The translations under genes were made by a program, and so were the position numbers. The notes below the pieces were generated by a model that searched no databases, was not told the DNA's origin, and saw only the letters and a list, made by a program, of their open reading frames with translations. Of a stretch of 64,000 bases of DNA, positions 2,712 through 49,956 are shown piece by piece. The stretch lies in the NCBI RefSeq assembly GCF_056746865.1, contig NZ_CM163382.1. One strand, 5' to 3'. Position 1 is the first letter of the stretch, and the number at the start of each line of letters is the position of its first letter.

Positions 2712-3466
<755 letters not shown>

Positions 3467-3570
3467 ATCAGCATACTTGTCCTTAGCCTTCTGCAGTGAC
3501 AGCTGGTAGTACAGCGTGCTTCTGGCCAGCCCTGCAGCCTTTAACAGGTCAGACTGGCAGTGTCCGCACC

Positions 3571-4092
3571 TCAGGCTCCGGATGACTTTCGTTTTTTCTC
3601 CAGCTCCTGGCGCTTTTTTTCCAGGAGATGCTCCTGCATGGCTTTCAGATATGCATTTTCTGCGCGAAGATAACGCAGCTCATTCTTCATCTCTTCCGGC
3701 GTCATGTTTGCCTCGTTTTCATGGGTATCATCAGAACGGGTCATACTTTTCTCCTTCCTGCGCCTGATAAAGGCCTCATTACCAGATTTGCGGTAGCCTT
3801 TTATCCAGTTTTTAACCGTGTTGTGGCTGGGAATGTTAAACCGGGCAGCTACCCGGGGTAGAGACTCAGAATGCCCGAGAGCATAAAGAACCACGCAAAG
3901 TTTATCTTCAGGAGAATAGCTACGCTTGTGTCTGCAATCCAGTGCCCGAGGACCGTGAAGAAGAAAAAGATTAATCCAGTGTGAGAGGCTGGTGTGAGAA
4001 AGTTGAAAGAGTTTTGCCGTAGAAATGATGCCTGCATGACCAGCCAGGTAATGATTTACAGCGGCAAGTTTTACTTCAAATGAATGTTTCAT
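3571..4092 (-). CDS. insJ: IS150 transposase OrfA (InsJ), HTH DNA-binding protein, 173 aa
   Basis: Translation MKHSFEVKLAAVNHYLAGHAGIISTAKLFQLSHTSLSHWINLF...; ATG at complement 4090..4092 (ORF track starts 3 codons earlier at GTG). Confidence 0.9.
   Translation of the reverse strand: MKHSFEVKLAAVNHYLAGHAGIISTAKLFQLSHTSLSHWINLFLLHGPRALDCRHKRSYSPEDKLCVVLYALGHSESLPRVAARFNIPSHNTVKNWIKGYRKSGNEAFIRRRKEKSMTRSDDTHENEANMTPEEMKNELRYLRAENAYLKAMQEHLLEKKRQELEKKRKSSGA
3613..3620 (-). other. Programmed -1 ribosomal frameshift slippery heptamer A-AAA-AAG of IS150
   Basis: cttttttt on + strand = AAAAAAAG on coding strand near 3' end of insJ; IS150 frameshifting is established knowledge. Confidence 0.6.
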
Positions 4093-4255: not shown

Positions 4256-4332
<77 letters not shown>

Positions 4333-41126: not shown

Positions 41127-42623
41127 ATGACGCAATACTGGCTGGGGTTAGATTGTGGCGGTAGCTGGCTGAAAGCCGGGCTGTATGACCGCGAAGGCCG
41201 GGAGGCAGGCGTGCAGCGCCTGCCGCTGTGCGCATTAAGCCCGCAGCCAGGTTGGGCAGAGCGCGATATGGCAGAACTGTGGCAATGCTGCATGGCTGTC
41301 ATTCGCGCCCTGCTTACTCATACTGGCGTTAGCGGGGAACAAATAGTGGGTATCGGTATCTCCGCACAGGGAAAGGGGTTGTTTTTACTGGATAAAAACG
41401 ACAAGCCGCTCGGGAATGCTATTTTGTCCTCGGATCGCCGGGCGATGGAAATCGTTCGTCGCTGGCAGGAAGATGGCATCCCGGAAAAACTCTACCCGCT
41501 GACGCGACAAACCTTGTGGACCGGGCATCCGGTGTCGCTGTTACGCTGGCTGAAAGAGCACGAACCGGAACGCTACGCGCAAATTGGCTGCGTGATGATG
41601 ACGCACGACTACCTGCGCTGGTGTTTAACCGGCGTCAAAGGCTGTGAAGAGAGCAATATTTCCGAGTCCAATCTCTACAACATGAGTCTTGGGGAATATG
41701 ACCCGTGCCTCACCGACTGGCTTGGGATCGCTGAAATCAACCACGCCCTGCCGCCTGTTGTCGGATCTGCCGAAATCTGCGGGGAGATCACCGCTCAGAC
41801 AGCCGCACTGACCGGTCTGAAAGCGGGTACGCCCGTTGTCGGCGGCCTGTTTGATGTGGTTTCCACCGCACTCTGTGCCGGGATCGAAGACGAATTTACC
41901 CTTAATGCGGTGATGGGCACCTGGGCGGTGACCAGCGGCATAACCCGTGGTTTACGTGACGGTGAAGCGCATCCGTATGTCTATGGTCGCTACGTTAACG
42001 ATGGTCAATTTATCGTTCACGAAGCCAGCCCTACCTCTTCCGGCAACCTCGAATGGTTTACCGCACAGTGGGGAGAAATCTCGTTTGATGAGATTAACCA
42101 GGCCGTTGCCAGCTTGCCGAAGGCCGGGGGCGATCTCTTTTTCCTGCCGTTCCTGTACGGCAGCAACGCCGGACTCGAGATGACTAGCGGTTTCTACGGG
42201 ATGCAGGCCATTCACACCCGCGCACACCTGTTGCAGGCCATTTATGAAGGCGTAGTGTTCAGCCATATGACCCATCTCAACCGGATGCGCGAACGTTTTA
42301 CTGATGTGCACACCCTGCGCGTCACTGGCGGCCCGGCGCACTCCGATGTCTGGATGCAAATGCTGGCGGACGTCAGCGGGCTGCGTATCGAACTGCCGCA
42401 GGTGGAAGAAACCGGCTGTTTTGGCGCGGCGCTTGCCGCCCGCGTCGGCACCGGGGTTTATCACAACTTCAGCGAAGCCCAGCGCGATCAACAGCACCCG
42501 GTGCGCACACTGCTGCCGGATATGACCGCCCATCAGCTTTACCAACAAAAATACCAACGCTATCAGCATCTCATTGCCGCACTTCAGGGCTTTCACGCCC
42601 GCATCAAGGAGCACACATTATGA
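41127..42623 (+). CDS. lyxK: L-xylulose / 3-keto-L-gulonate kinase
   Basis: Translation MTQYWLGLDCGGSWLKAGLYDREGREAGVQRLPL...; FGGY kinase; 498 aa. Confidence 0.95.
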   Translation: MTQYWLGLDCGGSWLKAGLYDREGREAGVQRLPLCALSPQPGWAERDMAELWQCCMAVIRALLTHTGVSGEQIVGIGISAQGKGLFLLDKNDKPLGNAILSSDRRAMEIVRRWQEDGIPEKLYPLTRQTLWTGHPVSLLRWLKEHEPERYAQIGCVMMTHDYLRWCLTGVKGCEESNISESNLYNMSLGEYDPCLTDWLGIAEINHALPPVVGSAEICGEITAQTAALTGLKAGTPVVGGLFDVVSTALCAGIEDEFTLNAVMGTWAVTSGITRGLRDGEAHPYVYGRYVNDGQFIVHEASPTSSGNLEWFTAQWGEISFDEINQAVASLPKAGGDLFFLPFLYGSNAGLEMTSGFYGMQAIHTRAHLLQAIYEGVVFSHMTHLNRMRERFTDVHTLRVTGGPAHSDVWMQMLADVSGLRIELPQVEETGCFGAALAARVGTGVYHNFSEAQRDQQHPVRTLLPDMTAHQLYQQKYQRYQHLIAALQGFHARIKEHTL

Positions 42624-43282
42624 GCCGACCACTTCTGCAACTGGCCCTCGACCACTCATCACTTGAAGACGCACAGCGCGACGTGACGCTGTTAAAAGAC
42701 AGCGTCGATATCGTCGAAGCGGGCACCATTCTCTGTTTAAACGAAGGGCTTGGCGCGGTGAAAGCCTTGCGCGAACAGTGCCCGGACAAAATCATCGTCG
42801 CTGACTGGAAGGTCGCCGATGCCGGTGAAACGCTCGCGCAACAGGCATTTGGCGCAGGCGCTAACTGGATGACCATCATCTGCGCCGCGCCGCTCGCGAC
42901 GGTGGAAAAAGGCCACGCCATGGCGCAACGCTGCGGTGGTGAAATTCAGATAGAACTGTTCGGCAACTGGACGCTGGACGACGCCCGCGACTGGCATCGT
43001 ATTGGCGTGCGGCAGGCCATTTATCATCGCGGTCGTGACGCGCAAGCCAGCGGGCAACAGTGGTGCGAAGCCGATCTGGCACGTATGAAGGCGCTTTCCG
43101 ATATCGGCCTTGAGCTTTCCATTACCGGCGGGATTACCCCTGCTGACCTGCCGCTGTTTAAAGATATCCGCGTGAAAGCGTTTATTGCCGGGCGGGCGCT
43201 GGCAGGCGCAGCAAATCCGGCGCAGGTGGCTGGCGATTTCCATGCGCAAATCGACGCTATCTGGGGAGGCGCGCGTGCGTAA
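42620..43282 (+). CDS. sgbH: 3-keto-L-gulonate-6-phosphate decarboxylase
   Basis: Translation [51 protein letters not shown]...; overlaps lyxK stop by 4 bp. Confidence 0.95.
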
Positions 43283-44135
43283 TCATCCGTTAGGTATTTA
43301 TGAAAAAGCGCTGGCGAAAGATCTCTCCTGGCCTGAGCGGCTGGTGCTGGCGAAAAGCTGCAGTTTTGATTTTGTCGAAATGTCGGTGGATGAAACCGAC
43401 GAACGTTTGTCACGCCTTGACTGGAACGCCGCACAACGTGCTTCGCTGGTCACTGCGATGATCGAAACGGGTGTTGCCATTCCGTCGATGTGCCTGTCCG
43501 CACATCGTCGCTTTCCCTTTGGCAGCCGGGACAAGGCGGTGCGCGAACGGGCGCGGGAAATCATGAGTAAAGCGATTCGCCTGGCGCGCGATCTCGGCAT
43601 TCGCACCATTCAACTGGCGGGTTATGACGTCTATTACGAAGACCACGACGAAGGCACCCAGCAACGTTTTGCTGAAGGGCTGGCGTGGGCGGTCGAACAG
43701 GCGGCGGCATCACAAGTAATGCTGGCGGTGGAGATTATGGATACCGCGTTTATGAACTCCATCAGCAAATGGAAAAAGTGGGACGAGATGCTCGCCTCGC
43801 CGTGGTTCACCGTCTACCCGGACGTCGGCAACCTCAGCGCCTGGGGCAATGATGTTCCCGCCGAACTGAAACTGGGCATTGACCGTATTGCCGCAATCCA
43901 TCTGAAAGACACCCTGCCAGTCACCGGGCAAAATCCCGGACAGTTCCGTGATGTGCCGTTTGGCGAAGGCTGCGTCGATTTCGTTGGCATCTTCAAAACG
44001 CTGCATGAACTGAACTATCGCGGTTCTTTCCTGATTGAGATGTGGACCGAAAAAGCCAAAGAGCCGGTGCTGGAGATTATTCAGGCGCGGCGCTGGATTG
44101 AAGCGCGTATGCAGGAGGCTGGATTTATATGTTAG
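43275..44135 (+). CDS. sgbU: L-xylulose-5-phosphate 3-epimerase, 286 aa
   Basis: Translation (V/M)[44 protein letters not shown]...; inferred GTG start at 43275 inside sgbH 3' end (ORF track starts 30 codons earlier). Confidence 0.9.
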
Positions 44136-44824
44136 AGCAACTGAAAGCCGACGTGCTGGCGGCGAATCTGGCGCTTCCCGCTCACCATCTGGTGACGTTC
44201 ACCTGGGGCAATGTCAGCGCGGTAGACGAAACGCGGCAATGGATGGTAATCAAACCTTCCGGCGTCGAGTACGACGTGATGACCGCCGACGATATGGTGG
44301 TGGTTGAGATAGCCAGCGGTAAGGGGGTGGAAGGCAGCAAAAAGCCCTCGTCCGACACGCCAACGCATCTGGCGCTCTACCGTCGCTATGCCGAAATCGG
44401 TGGCATTGTGCATACCCACTCGCGCCACGCGACCATCTGGTCACAGGCCGGGCTGGATCTCCCCGCCTGGGGCACCACGCACGCCGATTACTTCTATGGA
44501 GCCATCCCCTGCACGCGCCTGATGACCGCAGAAGAGATCAACGGCGAGTATGAATACCAGACTGGCGAAGTGATCATTGAAACCCTCGAAGAACGCGGCA
44601 GGAGTCCAGCGCAAATCCCGGCGGTTCTGGTACATTCTCACGGCCCGTTCGCCTGGGGAAAAAATGCCGCCGATGCAGTGCATAACGCCGTGGTGCTGGA
44701 AGAGTGTGCCTATATGGGCCTGTTCTCGCGTCAGCTTGCGCCGCAGCTCCCTGCGATGCAAAACGAACTGTTAGATAAGCACTACCTGCGTAAGCATGGG
44801 GCCAATGCCTATTACGGGCAGTAA
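44129..44824 (+). CDS. sgbE: L-ribulose-5-phosphate 4-epimerase
   Basis: Translation [49 protein letters not shown]...; class II aldolase fold; 231 aa. Confidence 0.95.
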
Positions 44825-44855: not shown

Positions 44856-45671
44856 CTACGAATTGATATGTTCCTTGCTGTAACGTCGCTTCCACGCAGC
44901 TGGCGTTAAACCGGTGTGTTTGCGAAAAATCTGTCGGAAATAGCCAACGTCATTAAACCCGCACAACGCAGCCACTTCAGTGAGCGATCGCGCTTCGCTA
45001 ATTAACAGCTTTTCGGCTTCGCGCACTCGCTGGCGATGAATTGCTTCTGTTAACGTCAGATGAAACACCCGCCGGTAGACGCGCCCAAGATAATCGGCAT
45101 TGCAGTACAGCTCGCGGGCTAAAAGCGCCGTGGAAAGCGGGCGATGATATTGCGTGCGGATCAGTTTCTGCGCTTTCCAGGCAAGCGTGGTACCTGCGGC
45201 ATCGGCCTGTTCATCAAGACGCGCGTCACGGGTGAGTTGCTGCAAAATCAGCAGCACAATAAACTCCAGCGCCGGAGTGCGTTGATGCTTTTCCTGTTCG
45301 CTTAAGAACTGGCGAAACAGGGCCACCAGCGCCTGCCGATCGGCAACCTTTGTTTGTTGCGGCACGCTAAGATGAGTGAGCCAGCGCGGGTCGCTATCCG
45401 GCGCTTTAACCTCAAAATGCAGCCAGTAAAATTTGAGATCGGCGGGAAAATCCTCTACCCCAACATGCTGTCGGTTCGGCCAGAGTAATAAACTCTCTCC
45501 CGCATCGACCAGAAATATCCGCTCTTCTTCCTGAATCGCTAATCGACCTTTTTCGACAAAGATAATTTCCCATGACTCCAGCCGCCTTGCCGGATGCCTC
45601 CCTACGCCACGGGAAATAAATAATCCACCATTTTGCACTTTAATCGGTAACGTCATGGATAATTCGAGCAT
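44856..45671 (-). CDS. AraC-family transcriptional regulator (N-terminal cupin-type sugar-binding domain, C-terminal HTH); accessory cassette
   Basis: Translation ...FLVDAGESLLLWPNRQHVGVEDFPADLKFYWLHF...LTEVAALCGFNDVGYFRQIFRKHTGLTPAAWKRR; alternative start at 45656. Confidence 0.85.
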   Translation of the reverse strand: MLELSMTLPIKVQNGGLFISRGVGRHPARRLESWEIIFVEKGRLAIQEEERIFLVDAGESLLLWPNRQHVGVEDFPADLKFYWLHFEVKAPDSDPRWLTHLSVPQQTKVADRQALVALFRQFLSEQEKHQRTPALEFIVLLILQQLTRDARLDEQADAAGTTLAWKAQKLIRTQYHRPLSTALLARELYCNADYLGRVYRRVFHLTLTEAIHRQRVREAEKLLISEARSLTEVAALCGFNDVGYFRQIFRKHTGLTPAAWKRRYSKEHINS

Positions 45672-45896
45672 TGATATGTAATTTCCCGCTTATTCATTAA
45701 TGATTAAACACATTACCTTTTGATTATTAATCAAAAACATTAATTTCACCTGATCCAATTCACACTTTTAAATTCAGGTCGGAATCGTCACCTTTTTTTA
45801 CTCTTTTCTCGCCTTGTTGATATTCCCGTTCACGGCAGAATTAATCAGGTCATTGCAATAAAACTAAAAATTGCTCCCTATTCACGAGGAATATCT
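45672..45896. promoter_or_regulatory. AT-rich divergent promoter region of AraC-family regulator and GPH transporter operon, with near-palindromic ttgattattaatcaa elements
   Basis: Read directly; markedly lower GC than flanking core genes. Confidence 0.5.
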
Positions 45897-47297
45897 ATGA
45901 CCTCTACACCGATTACTACCGCTGATATCGCTAAAGGTAAAATTGACGATGCGTTATCTGTACGGGAAAAAATAGGCTACGGCCTGGGTGACGCAGGCGG
46001 CACCGTAATAACTTGCCTGATCATGAACTTTCTCACCTTTTTCTACACCGACGTTTTTGGCTTAACTCCGGCGCTGGTCGGCACGCTGTTTATTGCACTG
46101 CGCGTGTTTGATGCCATCTCCGACCCGGTGATGGGCGTCATTGCCGACCGGACGCAAAGTCACTGGGGGCGCTTTCGTCCGTGGCAGTTATGGATTGCCA
46201 TTCCCATCGGCATTATCGGCATCCTGACGTTCACCGTGCCAGATGCCAGCATGGGAGTAAAAATCGCCTGGGCGTTCGGCACTTACCTGCTCCTTTCAGT
46301 CGGTTATACCGCCATCAACGTGCCGTACTGCGCGCTGATCAACACCATGACCACCCGCCACAATGAAGTGATCTCCTGCCAGTCCTGGCGATTCGTTCTC
46401 TGCGGTGTAGCGGGATTTCTGGTTTCGGTAGGCTTACCGTGGATGGTGGATCTCTTCGGTCAGGGTAATGCCGCGCGCGGCTATCAACTGGGCGTCGGCG
46501 TGCTGTGCGCCATCGCTGTGGTGATGTTCCTGTGCTGTTTCTTCTGGGTTCGTGAACGGGTACCACTCTCCACAATGGGGAAATTTACCCTGCGCGAACA
46601 TCTTGCCGGGCTGCGAAACAACGACCAACTGCTGCTGATGCTGGTCATGTCTTTCCTGCTGATTAACGTCTTTAATATTCGCGGCGGTGGGTATATGTAC
46701 TTCATTACCTACGTCTTACAAGGCAGTACGGGCTACACGTCGCTGTTCTTCACTATGGTCACCTTCGCCTCCATTATCGGCTCGGTGATTGTCAGCCCGT
46801 TAACGCGACGTTTCGATACCGTCAAAATTTACTACTACACCAACCTGCTCCTCGCTGCGCTGGCGGTGTTGATGTGGTTCCTGCCCTCTGGCCCGGCTTA
46901 TCAAACGCTGTGGCTGGCGGTGATCCTCGGTAATGGCGTGATTCTTGGCTTCACATTGCCACTGCACTTCTCATTGATGGCCTTTGCCGATGACTACGGC
47001 GAGTGGAAAACCCGCGTACGTTCTTCCGGCATGAACTTCGCCTTCAATCTGTTTTTCATCAAGCTGGCCTGGGCCTCCAGCGCCGGGATCATCAGCCTGC
47101 TGTTTATTTTTGTCGCCTACCAGCCAGGCGTGGAAAACCAGACCGCCAGTTCGCTTGGCGGGATCACAGCAATGGAAACATTGCTGCCTGCGCTATTCCA
47201 CCTGCTGCTGGCGATGGCGATCCGCTTTTGCAAACTCAATAACCCTATGATGTCACGCATTGCTAGCGACCTGCGTCAGCGTCATGTACAGCCTTAA
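45897..47297 (+). CDS. Glycoside-pentoside-hexuronide (GPH) family sugar:cation symporter (MelB/YicJ-like)
   Basis: Translation [56 protein letters not shown]... 12-TM; ATG 45897 preceded by GAGGA. Confidence 0.88.
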
Positions 47298-47307
47298 GGA
47301 GCACAAG

Positions 47308-49272
47308 ATGAACATTTCGGAAGTCGATCTGCATAAACTGACGGTCAGCGATCCGTTCCTCGGTCAGTACCAACAACTGGTCCGCGATGTGGTGATTCCT
47401 TATCAGTGGGACGCCTTGAACGATCGTATCCCAGAAGCGGAACCCAGCCATGCGATTGAAAACTTTCGCATTGCCGCAGGACTGCAAGACGGTGAATTTT
47501 ACGGGATGGTGTTTCAGGACAGCGACGTCGCCAAATGGCTGGAAGCGGTAGCCTGGTCGCTGTGCCAGAAGCCGGATGCCGAACTGGAAAAAACTGCTGA
47601 CGAGGTGATTGAACTGATCGCCTCCGCCCAGTGCGAAGATGGCTATCTCAATACTTACTTTACGGTAAAAGCGCCCGAAGAACGCTGGAGCAATCTGGCG
47701 GAGTGTCATGAACTTTACTGCGCCGGTCATCTGATTGAAGCCGGAGTCGCCTTCTTCCAGGCCACGGGCAAGCGGCGCTTGCTGGAAGTGGTTTGCCGTC
47801 TGGCCGATCATATCGACAGCGTATTTGGTCCAGGTGAAAGTAAGTTACACGGTTATCCTGGTCACCCGGAAATTGAACTGGCACTAATGCGCCTGTATGA
47901 AGTGACCGAAGAGCCGCGCTACCTGGCGCTGACGAACTATTTTGTCGAACAGCGTGGTGCGCAACCGCACTATTACGACCAGGAATATGAAAAGCGCGGG
48001 CAGACCTCGCACTGGCACACCTACGGCCCGGCGTGGATGGTGAAAGATAAAGCCTACAGCCAGGCGCATTTGCCCATCGCACAGCAACAAACCGCCATCG
48101 GACATGCAGTACGCTTTGTCTACCTGATGACTGGCGTCGCACATCTGGCGCGTTTAAGTCACGATGAAAGCAAGCGTCAGGATTGCCTGCGGCTGTGGAA
48201 CAATATGGCCCAGCGTCAGTTATATATTACCGGCGGCATTGGCTCACAAAGCAGCGGTGAAGCGTTCAGCAGCGATTACGATCTGCCGAATGACACGGTA
48301 TACGCTGAAAGTTGCGCCTCCATCGGCCTGATGATGTTTGCCCGGCGAATGCTGGAAATGGAAGGCGACAGTCAATATGCCGATGTGATGGAGCGCGCGC
48401 TGTACAACACTGTGCTCGGCGGCATGGCACTGGATGGCAAACATTTCTTCTATGTGAATCCGCTGGAAGTACATCCAAAATCGCTGAAATTCAACCATAT
48501 CTACGATCACGTTAAACCGCTCCGCCAGCGTTGGTTTGGCTGCGCTTGTTGTCCTCCAAATATCGCCCGCGTACTGACCTCGATTGGTCATTATCTCTAC
48601 ACGCCGCGTGAAGATGCGTTGTATATCAACATCTACGCAGGAAACAGCATGGAAGTGCCGGTAGAAAATGGCACGTTGTGCCTGCGGGTTAGCGGGAACT
48701 ATCCGTGGCAGGAACAGGTGACAATTGCGGTTGAATCGCCCCAGCCGGTGCGTCATACGCTGGCTTTACGTCTGCCGGACTGGTGCACACAGCCGCAGAT
48801 CATATTGAATGGGGAAGAGGTCGAGCAGGATATTCGTAAAGGGTATTTGCACATTACCCGCGAATGGCAGGAGGGCGATACGCTGAATCTGACTTTGCCG
48901 ATGCCGGTACGCCGCGTTTACGGTAACCCTCTGGTGCGTCACGTCGCCGGAAAAGTGGCGATTCAGCGCGGCCCGCTGGTGTATTGCCTGGAACAGGCCG
49001 ACAACGGCGAGTCACTGCATAACCTGTGGCTGCCCGCCGATGCGCCATTTACGACCTTTGAAGGCAAGGGATTGTTCAGCCATAAGATCTTAATCCAGGC
49101 ACCGGGTTACCGGTATGAACAGAGCAATCCAGAGCAGCAACCGCTGTGGCATTACGACAGTGCGCCAGCCAAACGCCAGCCGCAAACTCTGACGTTTATC
49201 CCGTGGTTTAGCTGGGCTAACCGGGGTGAAGGCGAAATGCGGATCTGGGTGAATGAGGAAACCAGCGCATGA
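47308..49272 (+). CDS. GH127 family (DUF1680) glycoside hydrolase, putative beta-L-arabinofuranosidase
   Basis: Translation MNISEVDLHKLTVSDPFLGQYQQLV...; motifs SGEAF, YAESCAS and WFGCACCPPN in spacing matching the HypBA1 Glu/Glu-x-Cys/Cys-Cys catalytic and Zn site as recalled; ATG 47308 preceded by AAGGAG, 10 bp after transporter stop. Confidence 0.85.
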   Translation: MNISEVDLHKLTVSDPFLGQYQQLVRDVVIPYQWDALNDRIPEAEPSHAIENFRIAAGLQDGEFYGMVFQDSDVAKWLEAVAWSLCQKPDAELEKTADEVIELIASAQCEDGYLNTYFTVKAPEERWSNLAECHELYCAGHLIEAGVAFFQATGKRRLLEVVCRLADHIDSVFGPGESKLHGYPGHPEIELALMRLYEVTEEPRYLALTNYFVEQRGAQPHYYDQEYEKRGQTSHWHTYGPAWMVKDKAYSQAHLPIAQQQTAIGHAVRFVYLMTGVAHLARLSHDESKRQDCLRLWNNMAQRQLYITGGIGSQSSGEAFSSDYDLPNDTVYAESCASIGLMMFARRMLEMEGDSQYADVMERALYNTVLGGMALDGKHFFYVNPLEVHPKSLKFNHIYDHVKPLRQRWFGCACCPPNIARVLTSIGHYLYTPREDALYINIYAGNSMEVPVENGTLCLRVSGNYPWQEQVTIAVESPQPVRHTLALRLPDWCTQPQIILNGEEVEQDIRKGYLHITREWQEGDTLNLTLPMPVRRVYGNPLVRHVAGKVAIQRGPLVYCLEQADNGESLHNLWLPADAPFTTFEGKGLFSHKILIQAPGYRYEQSNPEQQPLWHYDSAPAKRQPQTLTFIPWFSWANRGEGEMRIWVNEETSA

Positions 49273-49343: not shown

Positions 49344-49754
49344 TTAAACGCCCGGCAATACACGCCGGGCAGCTTCTGCCAGAAACGCACTTCTGTTGGC
49401 GTAGTCTGGGTTATTGCGCACGTAGGTATCAATCTTGTTCAGTAACCTTTTCGGCATCGTAATATTGATACGTTCAGCCCGACCTTCGAACTGATTCATA
49501 TTGATATCCACCAGCAACCATTGCCCGCCAATAAAGTCCTGCGCACGCTGGACCAGATGTGTTTCCACAGAGCCTGGAAGCGGCAACTCTTCATTCATCT
49601 CGCATAAGGTTTCGAAGTGCGCGACCAGTGCACTTCGCGCATCCTGGAAAGCGTTGTCCAGCGTATCACCAGCAAAATAACAGCCTGGAACATCAGGGAA
49701 AAAACCGCTGGCGCTGCCGTCAGGATCACTGTGGATATAGGCGGGATAAAACAT
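49344..49754 (-). CDS. hicB: HicB-family antitoxin (RNase H-like N-domain plus C-terminal ribbon-helix-helix)
   Basis: Translation MFYPAYIHSDPDGSASGFFPDVPGCYFAGDTLDNAFQDARSALVAHFE...NITMPKRLLNKIDTYVRNNPDYANRSAFLAEAARRVL. Confidence 0.8.
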   Translation of the reverse strand: MFYPAYIHSDPDGSASGFFPDVPGCYFAGDTLDNAFQDARSALVAHFETLCEMNEELPLPGSVETHLVQRAQDFIGGQWLLVDINMNQFEGRAERINITMPKRLLNKIDTYVRNNPDYANRSAFLAEAARRVLPGV

Positions 49755-49770
49755 ATTGCCTCCTGAAATT

Positions 49771-49956
49771 TTAAAATGTTAAACCAGCCTGACGCCCAAT
49801 TTGCGCCAGCGTACCGGGCTTAATATCTTTTTTAGGGTGCGGAACCGTCACCAGACCCGGATGAACAGGGTGGCGGAACTGATGATGACTGCCACGGGTT
49901 CGAATATGTTCCCAGCCATGCTGCTTCAGGATGGCGATCACGTCTGCACTTTTCAC
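49771..49956 (-). CDS. hicA: HicA-family toxin (YcfA-like mRNA interferase), 61 aa
   Basis: Translation MKSADVIAILKQHGWEHIRTRGSHHQFRHPVHPGLVTVPHPKKDIKPGTLAQIGRQAGLTF; 16 bp upstream of hicB on same strand. Confidence 0.8.
   Translation of the reverse strand: MKSADVIAILKQHGWEHIRTRGSHHQFRHPVHPGLVTVPHPKKDIKPGTLAQIGRQAGLTF

Follow-up and report, generated by a model that had tools for sequence, protein, structure and literature searches.

The genes lyxK, sgbH, sgbU and sgbE follow one another on one strand of a 64,000-nucleotide stretch of DNA (hereafter, the window) that closely matches Escherichia coli 118UI (NZ_CP032515.1), with which it is 100% identical over 42500-44300 and from which it differs by 2 mismatches in the first 50 kb. 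Neighbouring genes overlap by a few nucleotides at each of the three junctions (Table 1), and an intragenic Shine-Dalgarno (SD) sequence located in the upstream gene precedes the start of each of sgbH, sgbU and sgbE. At its 3′ end sgbH reads ATC TGG GGA GGC GCG CGT GCG TAA, with the TAA stop at 43280-43282, and this segment includes the GTG at 43275, after which the sgbU frame continues as CGT AAT CAT CCG TTA GGT ATT TAT GAA AAA. The initial annotation had proposed that sgbU begins at this GTG embedded in the end of sgbH, had remarked that the mechanically derived open reading frame (ORF) opens 30 codons earlier, and had described overlaps of 4 bp between lyxK and sgbH and of 7 bp between sgbU and sgbE. 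This layout was borne out: the GTG at 43275-43277 is in frame and 8 nt are shared with sgbH, the listed ORF does open at TTG 43185, and both flanking overlaps follow from the ORF coordinates. A second in-frame candidate, the ATG at 43242, was absent from that annotation. The K-12 gene (sgbU or yiaR, b3582, in the yiaK-S operon) has the same GTG start and the same 8-nt and 7-nt overlaps with sgbH and sgbE, and its product is about 96-98% identical to that of the window, with Gln5 in K-12 and Pro5 in the window.

Table 1. Genes, junctions and candidate start signals of the lyxK-sgbH-sgbU-sgbE region (window coordinates)
Feature	Position	Strand	Basis or remark
lyxK CDS	41127-42623	+	ORF list
lyxK/sgbH 4-nt overlap ATGA, with AAGGAG 5′ of it	42620-42623	+	ORF list
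sgbH CDS, 3-keto-L-gulonate-6-phosphate decarboxylase (PGAP label ulaD)	42620-43282	+	ORF list, PF00215
TTG opening the mechanical 316-aa ORF (43185-44135); rejected start	43185-43187	+	six-frame ORF list
In-frame ATG 11 codons 5′ of the GTG; rejected start (297 aa)	43242-43244	+	within sgbH codons His-Ala (CAT GCG)
SD site GGGGAGG of sgbU, in sgbH codons Trp-Gly-Gly	43263-43269	+	pairing with the 16S 3′ tail
sgbU initiation codon GTG	43275-43277	+	in frame with the SgbU N-terminus; annotated start in RefSeq strain 118UI
sgbH/sgbU 8-nt overlap (GTGCGTAA; -8 spacing class)	43275-43282	+	sequence and ORF list
sgbU CDS, 286 aa, L-ribulose/L-xylulose-5-phosphate 3-epimerase	43275-44135	+	WP_001309844.1, TIGR00542, PF01261, UlaE 3cqh
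sgbU/sgbE 7-nt overlap (ATGTTAG), with CAGGAGG 5′ of it	44129-44135	+	ORF list
sgbE CDS	44129-44824	+	ORF list

Translation of sgbU from GTG 43275, yielding an epimerase of 286 aa, is the reading that we hold with high confidence, and it agrees with current annotation. In the near-identical RefSeq record NZ_CP032515.1 the gene is annotated with exactly the limits given in Table 1, and the homologous GTG is the annotated start in four E. coli strains (93-96% identical) as well as in K-12 MG1655 (NP_418039.2, 286 aa). The 286-aa protein has the UniRef name of K-12 SgbU, with at least 1,000 contigs encoding it; moreover, almost all of the best 120 SgbU homologues, which come from more than 20 genera, are of this length. 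An older K-12 GenBank record instead has sgbU starting at ATG 43242 and encoding 297 aa, an alternative that we consider very improbable. This codon is an ATG, lies in frame and is followed by no stop up to the GTG; all E. coli strains that were compared have it, as do 11 of the 62 loci from other species, and the corresponding 297-aa sequence is present in databases (AAB18559.1, WP_001232378.1 and WP_001232359.1). The entry AAB18559 goes back to the GenBank record with which this part of the chromosome was first deposited in 1994. However, the 297-aa form represented by AAB18559.1 and WP_001232378.1 was found on 8 contigs, and both K-12 and RefSeq now place the start at the GTG and not at this ATG, the ".2" suffix of the K-12 protein accession being consistent with a later revision of the start. 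As for the TTG located 90 nt 5′ of the GTG, it opens the longest ORF in the sgbU frame, but no 316-aa protein was present among the best 120 homologues, and the chance that sgbU starts there is in our estimation negligible.

The signals for ribosome binding point in the same direction. The duplex predicted between the sgbU SD and the 3′ tail of 16S rRNA amounts to -11.3 kcal/mol and ends 5 nt 5′ of GTG 43275, and it ranks first among the 2,939 ATG, GTG and TTG sites of the + strand of the window; the start signal at this codon is beyond chance. The SD pairings of sgbH and sgbE reach -7.7 and -10.3 kcal/mol, respectively. By comparison, ATG 43242 is preceded by a weak and badly spaced SD (-5.9 kcal/mol at 12 nt), and the codon itself is a by-product of the His-Ala codons of sgbH, whereas TTG 43185 has no SD at all (-0.1 kcal/mol). 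The block ATCTGGGGAG (43259-43268) is nearly invariant in 57 Enterobacterales sequences, third and synonymous positions of sgbH included. Masking of this ribosome-binding site by RNA structure was considered and rejected. The predicted folding energy of a 91-nt RNA covering the junction is -25.5 kcal/mol, whereas shuffled versions average -27.7 (z = +0.69), so that there is no extra stability, and the minimum free energy helix CAUGCGC/GCGCGUG that covers the GTG is not conserved, as other E. coli strains carry GCAAGCGTG, which breaks it.

A comparative scan with one genome per species gave 62 loci, ranging from Escherichia to Pasteurellaceae, Cardiobacterium, Alphaproteobacteria and Firmicutes, in which the position of the sgbU GTG is occupied by an ATG almost everywhere outside Escherichia. 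Of the 69 aligned sequences, 57 have ATG and 12 have GTG at this codon. In the scan, GTG was limited to E. coli, E. albertii, E. whittamii, an Escherichia-like metagenome-assembled genome (MAG) and one Firmicute. In 34 of the 62 loci this aligned ATG is the first possible start, with no ATG, GTG or TTG between it and the nearest upstream in-frame stop, and in 8 loci such a stop lies just 2-10 codons 5′ of it. These comparisons bear directly on both upstream candidates. ATG 43242 is missing in most genera, and in-frame stops separate its position from the conserved start in Kluyvera, Kosakonia and Buttiauxella (at -7/-8 codons) and in more distant taxa. The TTG-initiated extension is cut off even in close relatives, because an in-frame stop occurs 16 codons 5′ of the GTG in E. 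coli SCPM-O-B-8794 (L008) and in E. whittamii (L014). One MAG contig deposited under the name 'Citrobacter sp.' (DXKH01000018.1, L007) encodes an SgbU that is 97% identical to that of the window, and both its GTG start and its junction are of the Escherichia type; this contig looks like a piece of Escherichia that was binned or labelled as Citrobacter. In some lineages the operon bears signs of decay: sgbU of Citrobacter koseri (L066) is open for 97 codons only, E. whittamii has no alignable sgbE start, the N-terminus of sgbH cannot be aligned in E. albertii (L009), and one E. coli strain (NZ_CP074815.1) retains just the first 403 nt of the query, which has no match at all in 570 of 5,426 complete E. 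coli genomes.

A test of the reading frame was performed on the alignment of 57 Enterobacterales sequences by measuring site variability per 30-nt bin. Variability peaks at the third positions of sgbH in every bin up to 43274 and at the third positions of sgbU in every bin from 43275 onwards. Among E. coli strains, most substitutions that fall in the 30 codons before the GTG leave the SgbH sequence unchanged, while nearly all of them would replace a residue if read in the sgbU frame. The whole interval between TTG 43185 and the GTG thus obeys the frame of sgbH, and the 11 codons that would be added by ATG 43242 have the same periodicity and admit free changes within E. coli (L/P, A/V and R/S) if read as SgbU. 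These 30 codons are non-coding in the sgbU frame, which is simply the +1 frame of sgbH happening to be free of stops. Both upstream starts were rejected on the strength of their SD sequences, the in-frame stops of relatives, the phase of substitutions and the boundaries of the family profiles.

Such boundaries were obtained by placing protein models on the 316-aa ORF. The TIGR00542 equivalog matches with 516.5 bits (cutoff 272.15), its positions 1-279 of 279 falling on ORF residues 32-316, and NF009689 matches with 504.3 bits (cutoff 200), its positions 2-285 of 286 falling on residues 32-315; since position 2 of the latter lies on residue 32, position 1 corresponds to residue 31, which is the GTG codon. 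A further match to PF01261 (190.6 bits) indicates a xylose-isomerase-like TIM barrel. Sequence homology puts SgbU in the L-ribulose-5-phosphate 3-epimerase equivalog family as a predicted C3 epimerase that would convert L-xylulose-5-P to L-ribulose-5-P, the K-12 product being labelled 'putative L-xylulose 5-phosphate 3-epimerase'. Its paralogue of known structure, UlaE (PDB 3cqh-3cqk), resembles it over the whole TIM barrel, the match to 3cqh having E = 1.7e-105 and starting at ORF residue 33, and the native N-terminus of UlaE (MLSKQIPLGIYEK) is 2 residues longer than that of SgbU in the alignment. Neither the family profiles nor UlaE reach into the 11 codons downstream of ATG 43242. The metal ligands of UlaE, which we take to be Glu155, Asp185, His211 and Glu251, correspond to E166, D196, H222 and E262 of the 3cqh chain, numbered as native plus 11; in the HMMER alignment these residues face identical ones of SgbU, in the motifs VEIMD, YPDVGN, IHLKD and LIEMW.

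The two loci are also alike in gene order, both being arranged as decarboxylase, 3-epimerase and 4-epimerase, although their junctions differ. K-12 ulaE starts with an ATG located 9 nt after the stop of ulaD (TGGGGCTAAGGAGCGGATATG), whereas sgbU starts with a GTG that overlaps sgbH by 8 nt, and the following pair overlaps by 1 nt in ulaE/ulaF and by 7 nt in sgbU/sgbE. In both cases the decarboxylase ends in Trp-Gly (SgbH ...IWGG and UlaD ...LWG), which places G-rich sequence beside the SD of the next epimerase gene, and in K-12 the ulaD stop is itself part of the SD (TGGGGCTAAGGAG; L070 3825-3849).

Altogether, seven independent lines of evidence support GTG 43275 as the start of sgbU, namely the existing annotation, the conservation of an ATG at the aligned position, the phase of substitutions, the SD, the family profiles, the comparison with UlaE and the dominance of the 286-aa form. 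The proposal of the initial annotation is sustained by each of them, and the alignment of orthologous SgbU and UlaE N-termini, which it had suggested as a check, agrees with the GTG start. The mechanical ORF track therefore over-extends sgbU by 30 codons, and it is the current 286-aa annotation, and not the older 297-aa entry, that is right. Since this start already stands in the standard annotation of E. coli, neither the gene nor the class of overlap nor the proposed mechanism is new, and the choice of start has little significance beyond bookkeeping and opens no new question. What the sgbH/sgbU junction does offer is a clean textbook case of an SD and a start codon lying inside the preceding gene.

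Experimental start-site data for the K-12 gene were sought in published resources. INRI-seq, in which synthetic initiation regions of every K-12 gene are translated in a reconstituted system (PMC9825163), reports in its Table S3 two peaks for sgbU, one at an out-of-frame CTG at -14 (3 replicates) and another, detected in 2 of 5 replicates at about 36 CPM, at the in-frame GTG located at -6. These peaks, assigned to codons beside the annotated GTG and lying within 14 nt of it, show that ribosomes assemble at the K-12 junction in vitro, with a codon assignment good to ±3 nt. The value given for sgbU by Ribo-RET in the comparison table of the same work is 0, and SgbU was not found in the supplements of the TRAINSPOTTER N-terminomics study (2026 data set); both results are what one would predict of an operon that is not expressed in standard cultures. 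Full-text literature searches for sgbU and yiaR returned papers on regulation at the level of the operon and none on the start codon.

The peak at -6 raises the possibility that several starts are used and that N-terminal isoforms exist, for instance one from the K-12-specific GTG two codons upstream along with one from the annotated GTG, a scheme that we regard as hardly probable. In K-12 (L006 5223-5235) and in strain H32 the sequence GGAGGTGCGCGTG does contain this second in-frame GTG, but the equivalent segment of the window (43265-43277) is GGAGGCGCGCGTG, which lacks it, so that the -6 isoform is excluded for the window strain because the codon there is GCG (43269-43271). The codon is polymorphic among lineages, at a site whose variability is high (0.6-0.65). 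Even in K-12 this GTG abuts the SD with zero spacing. Moreover, INRI-seq accepts any start-like codon that lies within 15±3 nt of a peak, and hundreds of its calls fall at -5 to -15 nt (PMC9825163), and the null Ribo-RET value in its comparison table means that multiple sgbU starts have no signal in vivo in that source.

The initial annotation had further read the succession of short overlaps as implying tight translational coupling along lyxK-sgbH-sgbU-sgbE. Such coupling is plausible because the three junctions are conserved and belong to types known to be prone to it. Among the short-overlap classes, lyxK/sgbH has the canonical ATGA (-4) and sgbH/sgbU has NTGNNTAA (-8) with an intragenic SD, both recognised here from the sequence, while the -7 of sgbU/sgbE falls outside the enriched classes. 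A spacing of -4, followed by -1 and -8, is enriched in E. coli and across prokaryotes (PMC12548453, PMC10666635), and spacings from -8 to +10 nt have been treated as predictive of termination-reinitiation (PMC10666635), a range that includes the -4, -8 and -7 distances of this operon, which are kept across genera. In the alignments, lyxK/sgbH is joined by ATGA in 51 sequences and by a 1-nt overlap in 4, and the 69 sequences of sgbH/sgbU include 27 with the 8-nt overlap, 22 with a 2-nt gap, 8 with a 1-nt and 2 with a 4-nt overlap, the start of sgbU remaining fixed across relatives and the position of the sgbH stop varying. Among the three junctions, conservation is highest at sgbU/sgbE, whose 7-nt overlap appears in 58 of the 62 sequences with alignable sgbE, including those of Pasteurellaceae and Cardiobacterium. 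Overlaps are most enriched among subunits of heteromeric complexes, whereas the enzymes encoded here are not known to be subunits of one complex.

The most likely arrangement, in our view, is a partial coupling in which reinitiation and de novo initiation both contribute to the synthesis of SgbU. A ribosome terminating sgbH at its TAA would halt 5 nt beyond the GTG with the SD still reachable, and since it would stop so close to the start with the SD at hand, part of SgbU is probably made by termination-reinitiation. The same process may operate at the ATGA of lyxK/sgbH and at the 7-nt junction of sgbU/sgbE. The remainder of SgbU would come from independent initiation at a strong and unstructured SD. 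With regard to precedents, 4 of 5 native E. coli pairs with a -4 overlap were found to be coupled, coupling falling steeply with distance (PMC6728339), and the role of the SD in coupling is variable, usually positive (PMC12548453, PMC10666635, PMC6728339). Experiments with premature stops and reporters on coupling in this operon were not present in the literature searched.

A different balance would result if sgbU, while starting at GTG 43275, were translated essentially independently of sgbH, by de novo loading of ribosomes on its SD, and the overlaps reflected genome compaction. We consider this somewhat unlikely, although several observations speak for it. The strong SD and the lack of excess structure mean that de novo initiation alone could explain the synthesis of SgbU, the site being the strongest in the window, the junction unsequestered and the helix over the GTG variable among strains. 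Furthermore, 22 of 69 sequences have a 2-nt gap at this junction, so that conservation does not extend to the overlap as such, the paralogous genes ulaD and ulaE are separated by 9 nt, and bioBF, one of the five overlapping E. coli pairs mentioned above, was uncoupled (PMC6728339). However, every geometry recorded at sgbH/sgbU (+8, +4, +1 and -2, as nucleotides of overlap) lies inside the reinitiation range of -8 to +10 nt (PMC10666635), and the prevalence of coupling among the -4 pairs, with its steep drop with distance, argues for an effect at such short spacings. In addition, GTG is a weaker start codon than ATG and would benefit more from a ribosome supplied on the spot. The sgbH/sgbU pair could serve as a native -8 case of termination-reinitiation, the published E. 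coli experiments having used -4 pairs.

The distribution of GTG and ATG among relatives also admits an evolutionary reading, which we put forward as a distinctly long shot. Escherichia alone would have swapped the ancestral ATG of sgbU for GTG, a swap that also turns sgbH His219 into Arg, with its SD extended to GGAGG simultaneously, in what may be a lineage-specific retuning that left SgbU more dependent on ribosomes terminating sgbH; strains with a GTG at -6, such as K-12, would then perhaps make a minor N-terminally extended isoform.

The databases also contain fused ORF calls, in the form of SgbH+SgbU proteins (P0008 and P0011, 457/473 aa) and SgbU+SgbE proteins (P0009 and P0105, 377/379 aa), all of them single-member entries from metagenomes. 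A programmed frameshift leading to an SgbH-SgbU fusion, suggested by these calls and by the open sgbU frame 5′ of the GTG, was rejected, because the fused calls are isolated in this way and the open stretch is of unconserved length, from 2 to 70 codons. With the downstream frames open through the overlaps, a single indel suffices to fuse neighbouring genes here, and these calls are probably errors of assembly or sequencing and not real fusions.

Outside the operon, the window differs from K-12 on the 3′ side of sgbE. An AraC-family regulator, an MFS transporter and a GH127 gene occupy 44856-49272, followed by hicBA at 49344-49956. K-12 lacks the segment at about 44960-48980, with the MFS transporter wholly missing there, and its pseudogenes ysaC and ysaD are stubs of the AraC-family regulator and of the GH127 glycoside hydrolase that are intact in the window. 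The window is without counterparts of K-12 yiaT-yiaV and has the HicA/HicB toxin-antitoxin pair before aldB. Near the opposite end, according to the annotation of the near-identical record, a transposase of IS1397 (IS3-family), made by programmed frameshift, is encoded on the - strand at 2744-4092, beside a tRNA-Pro gene (4256-4332, - strand) and between dppA and eptB.
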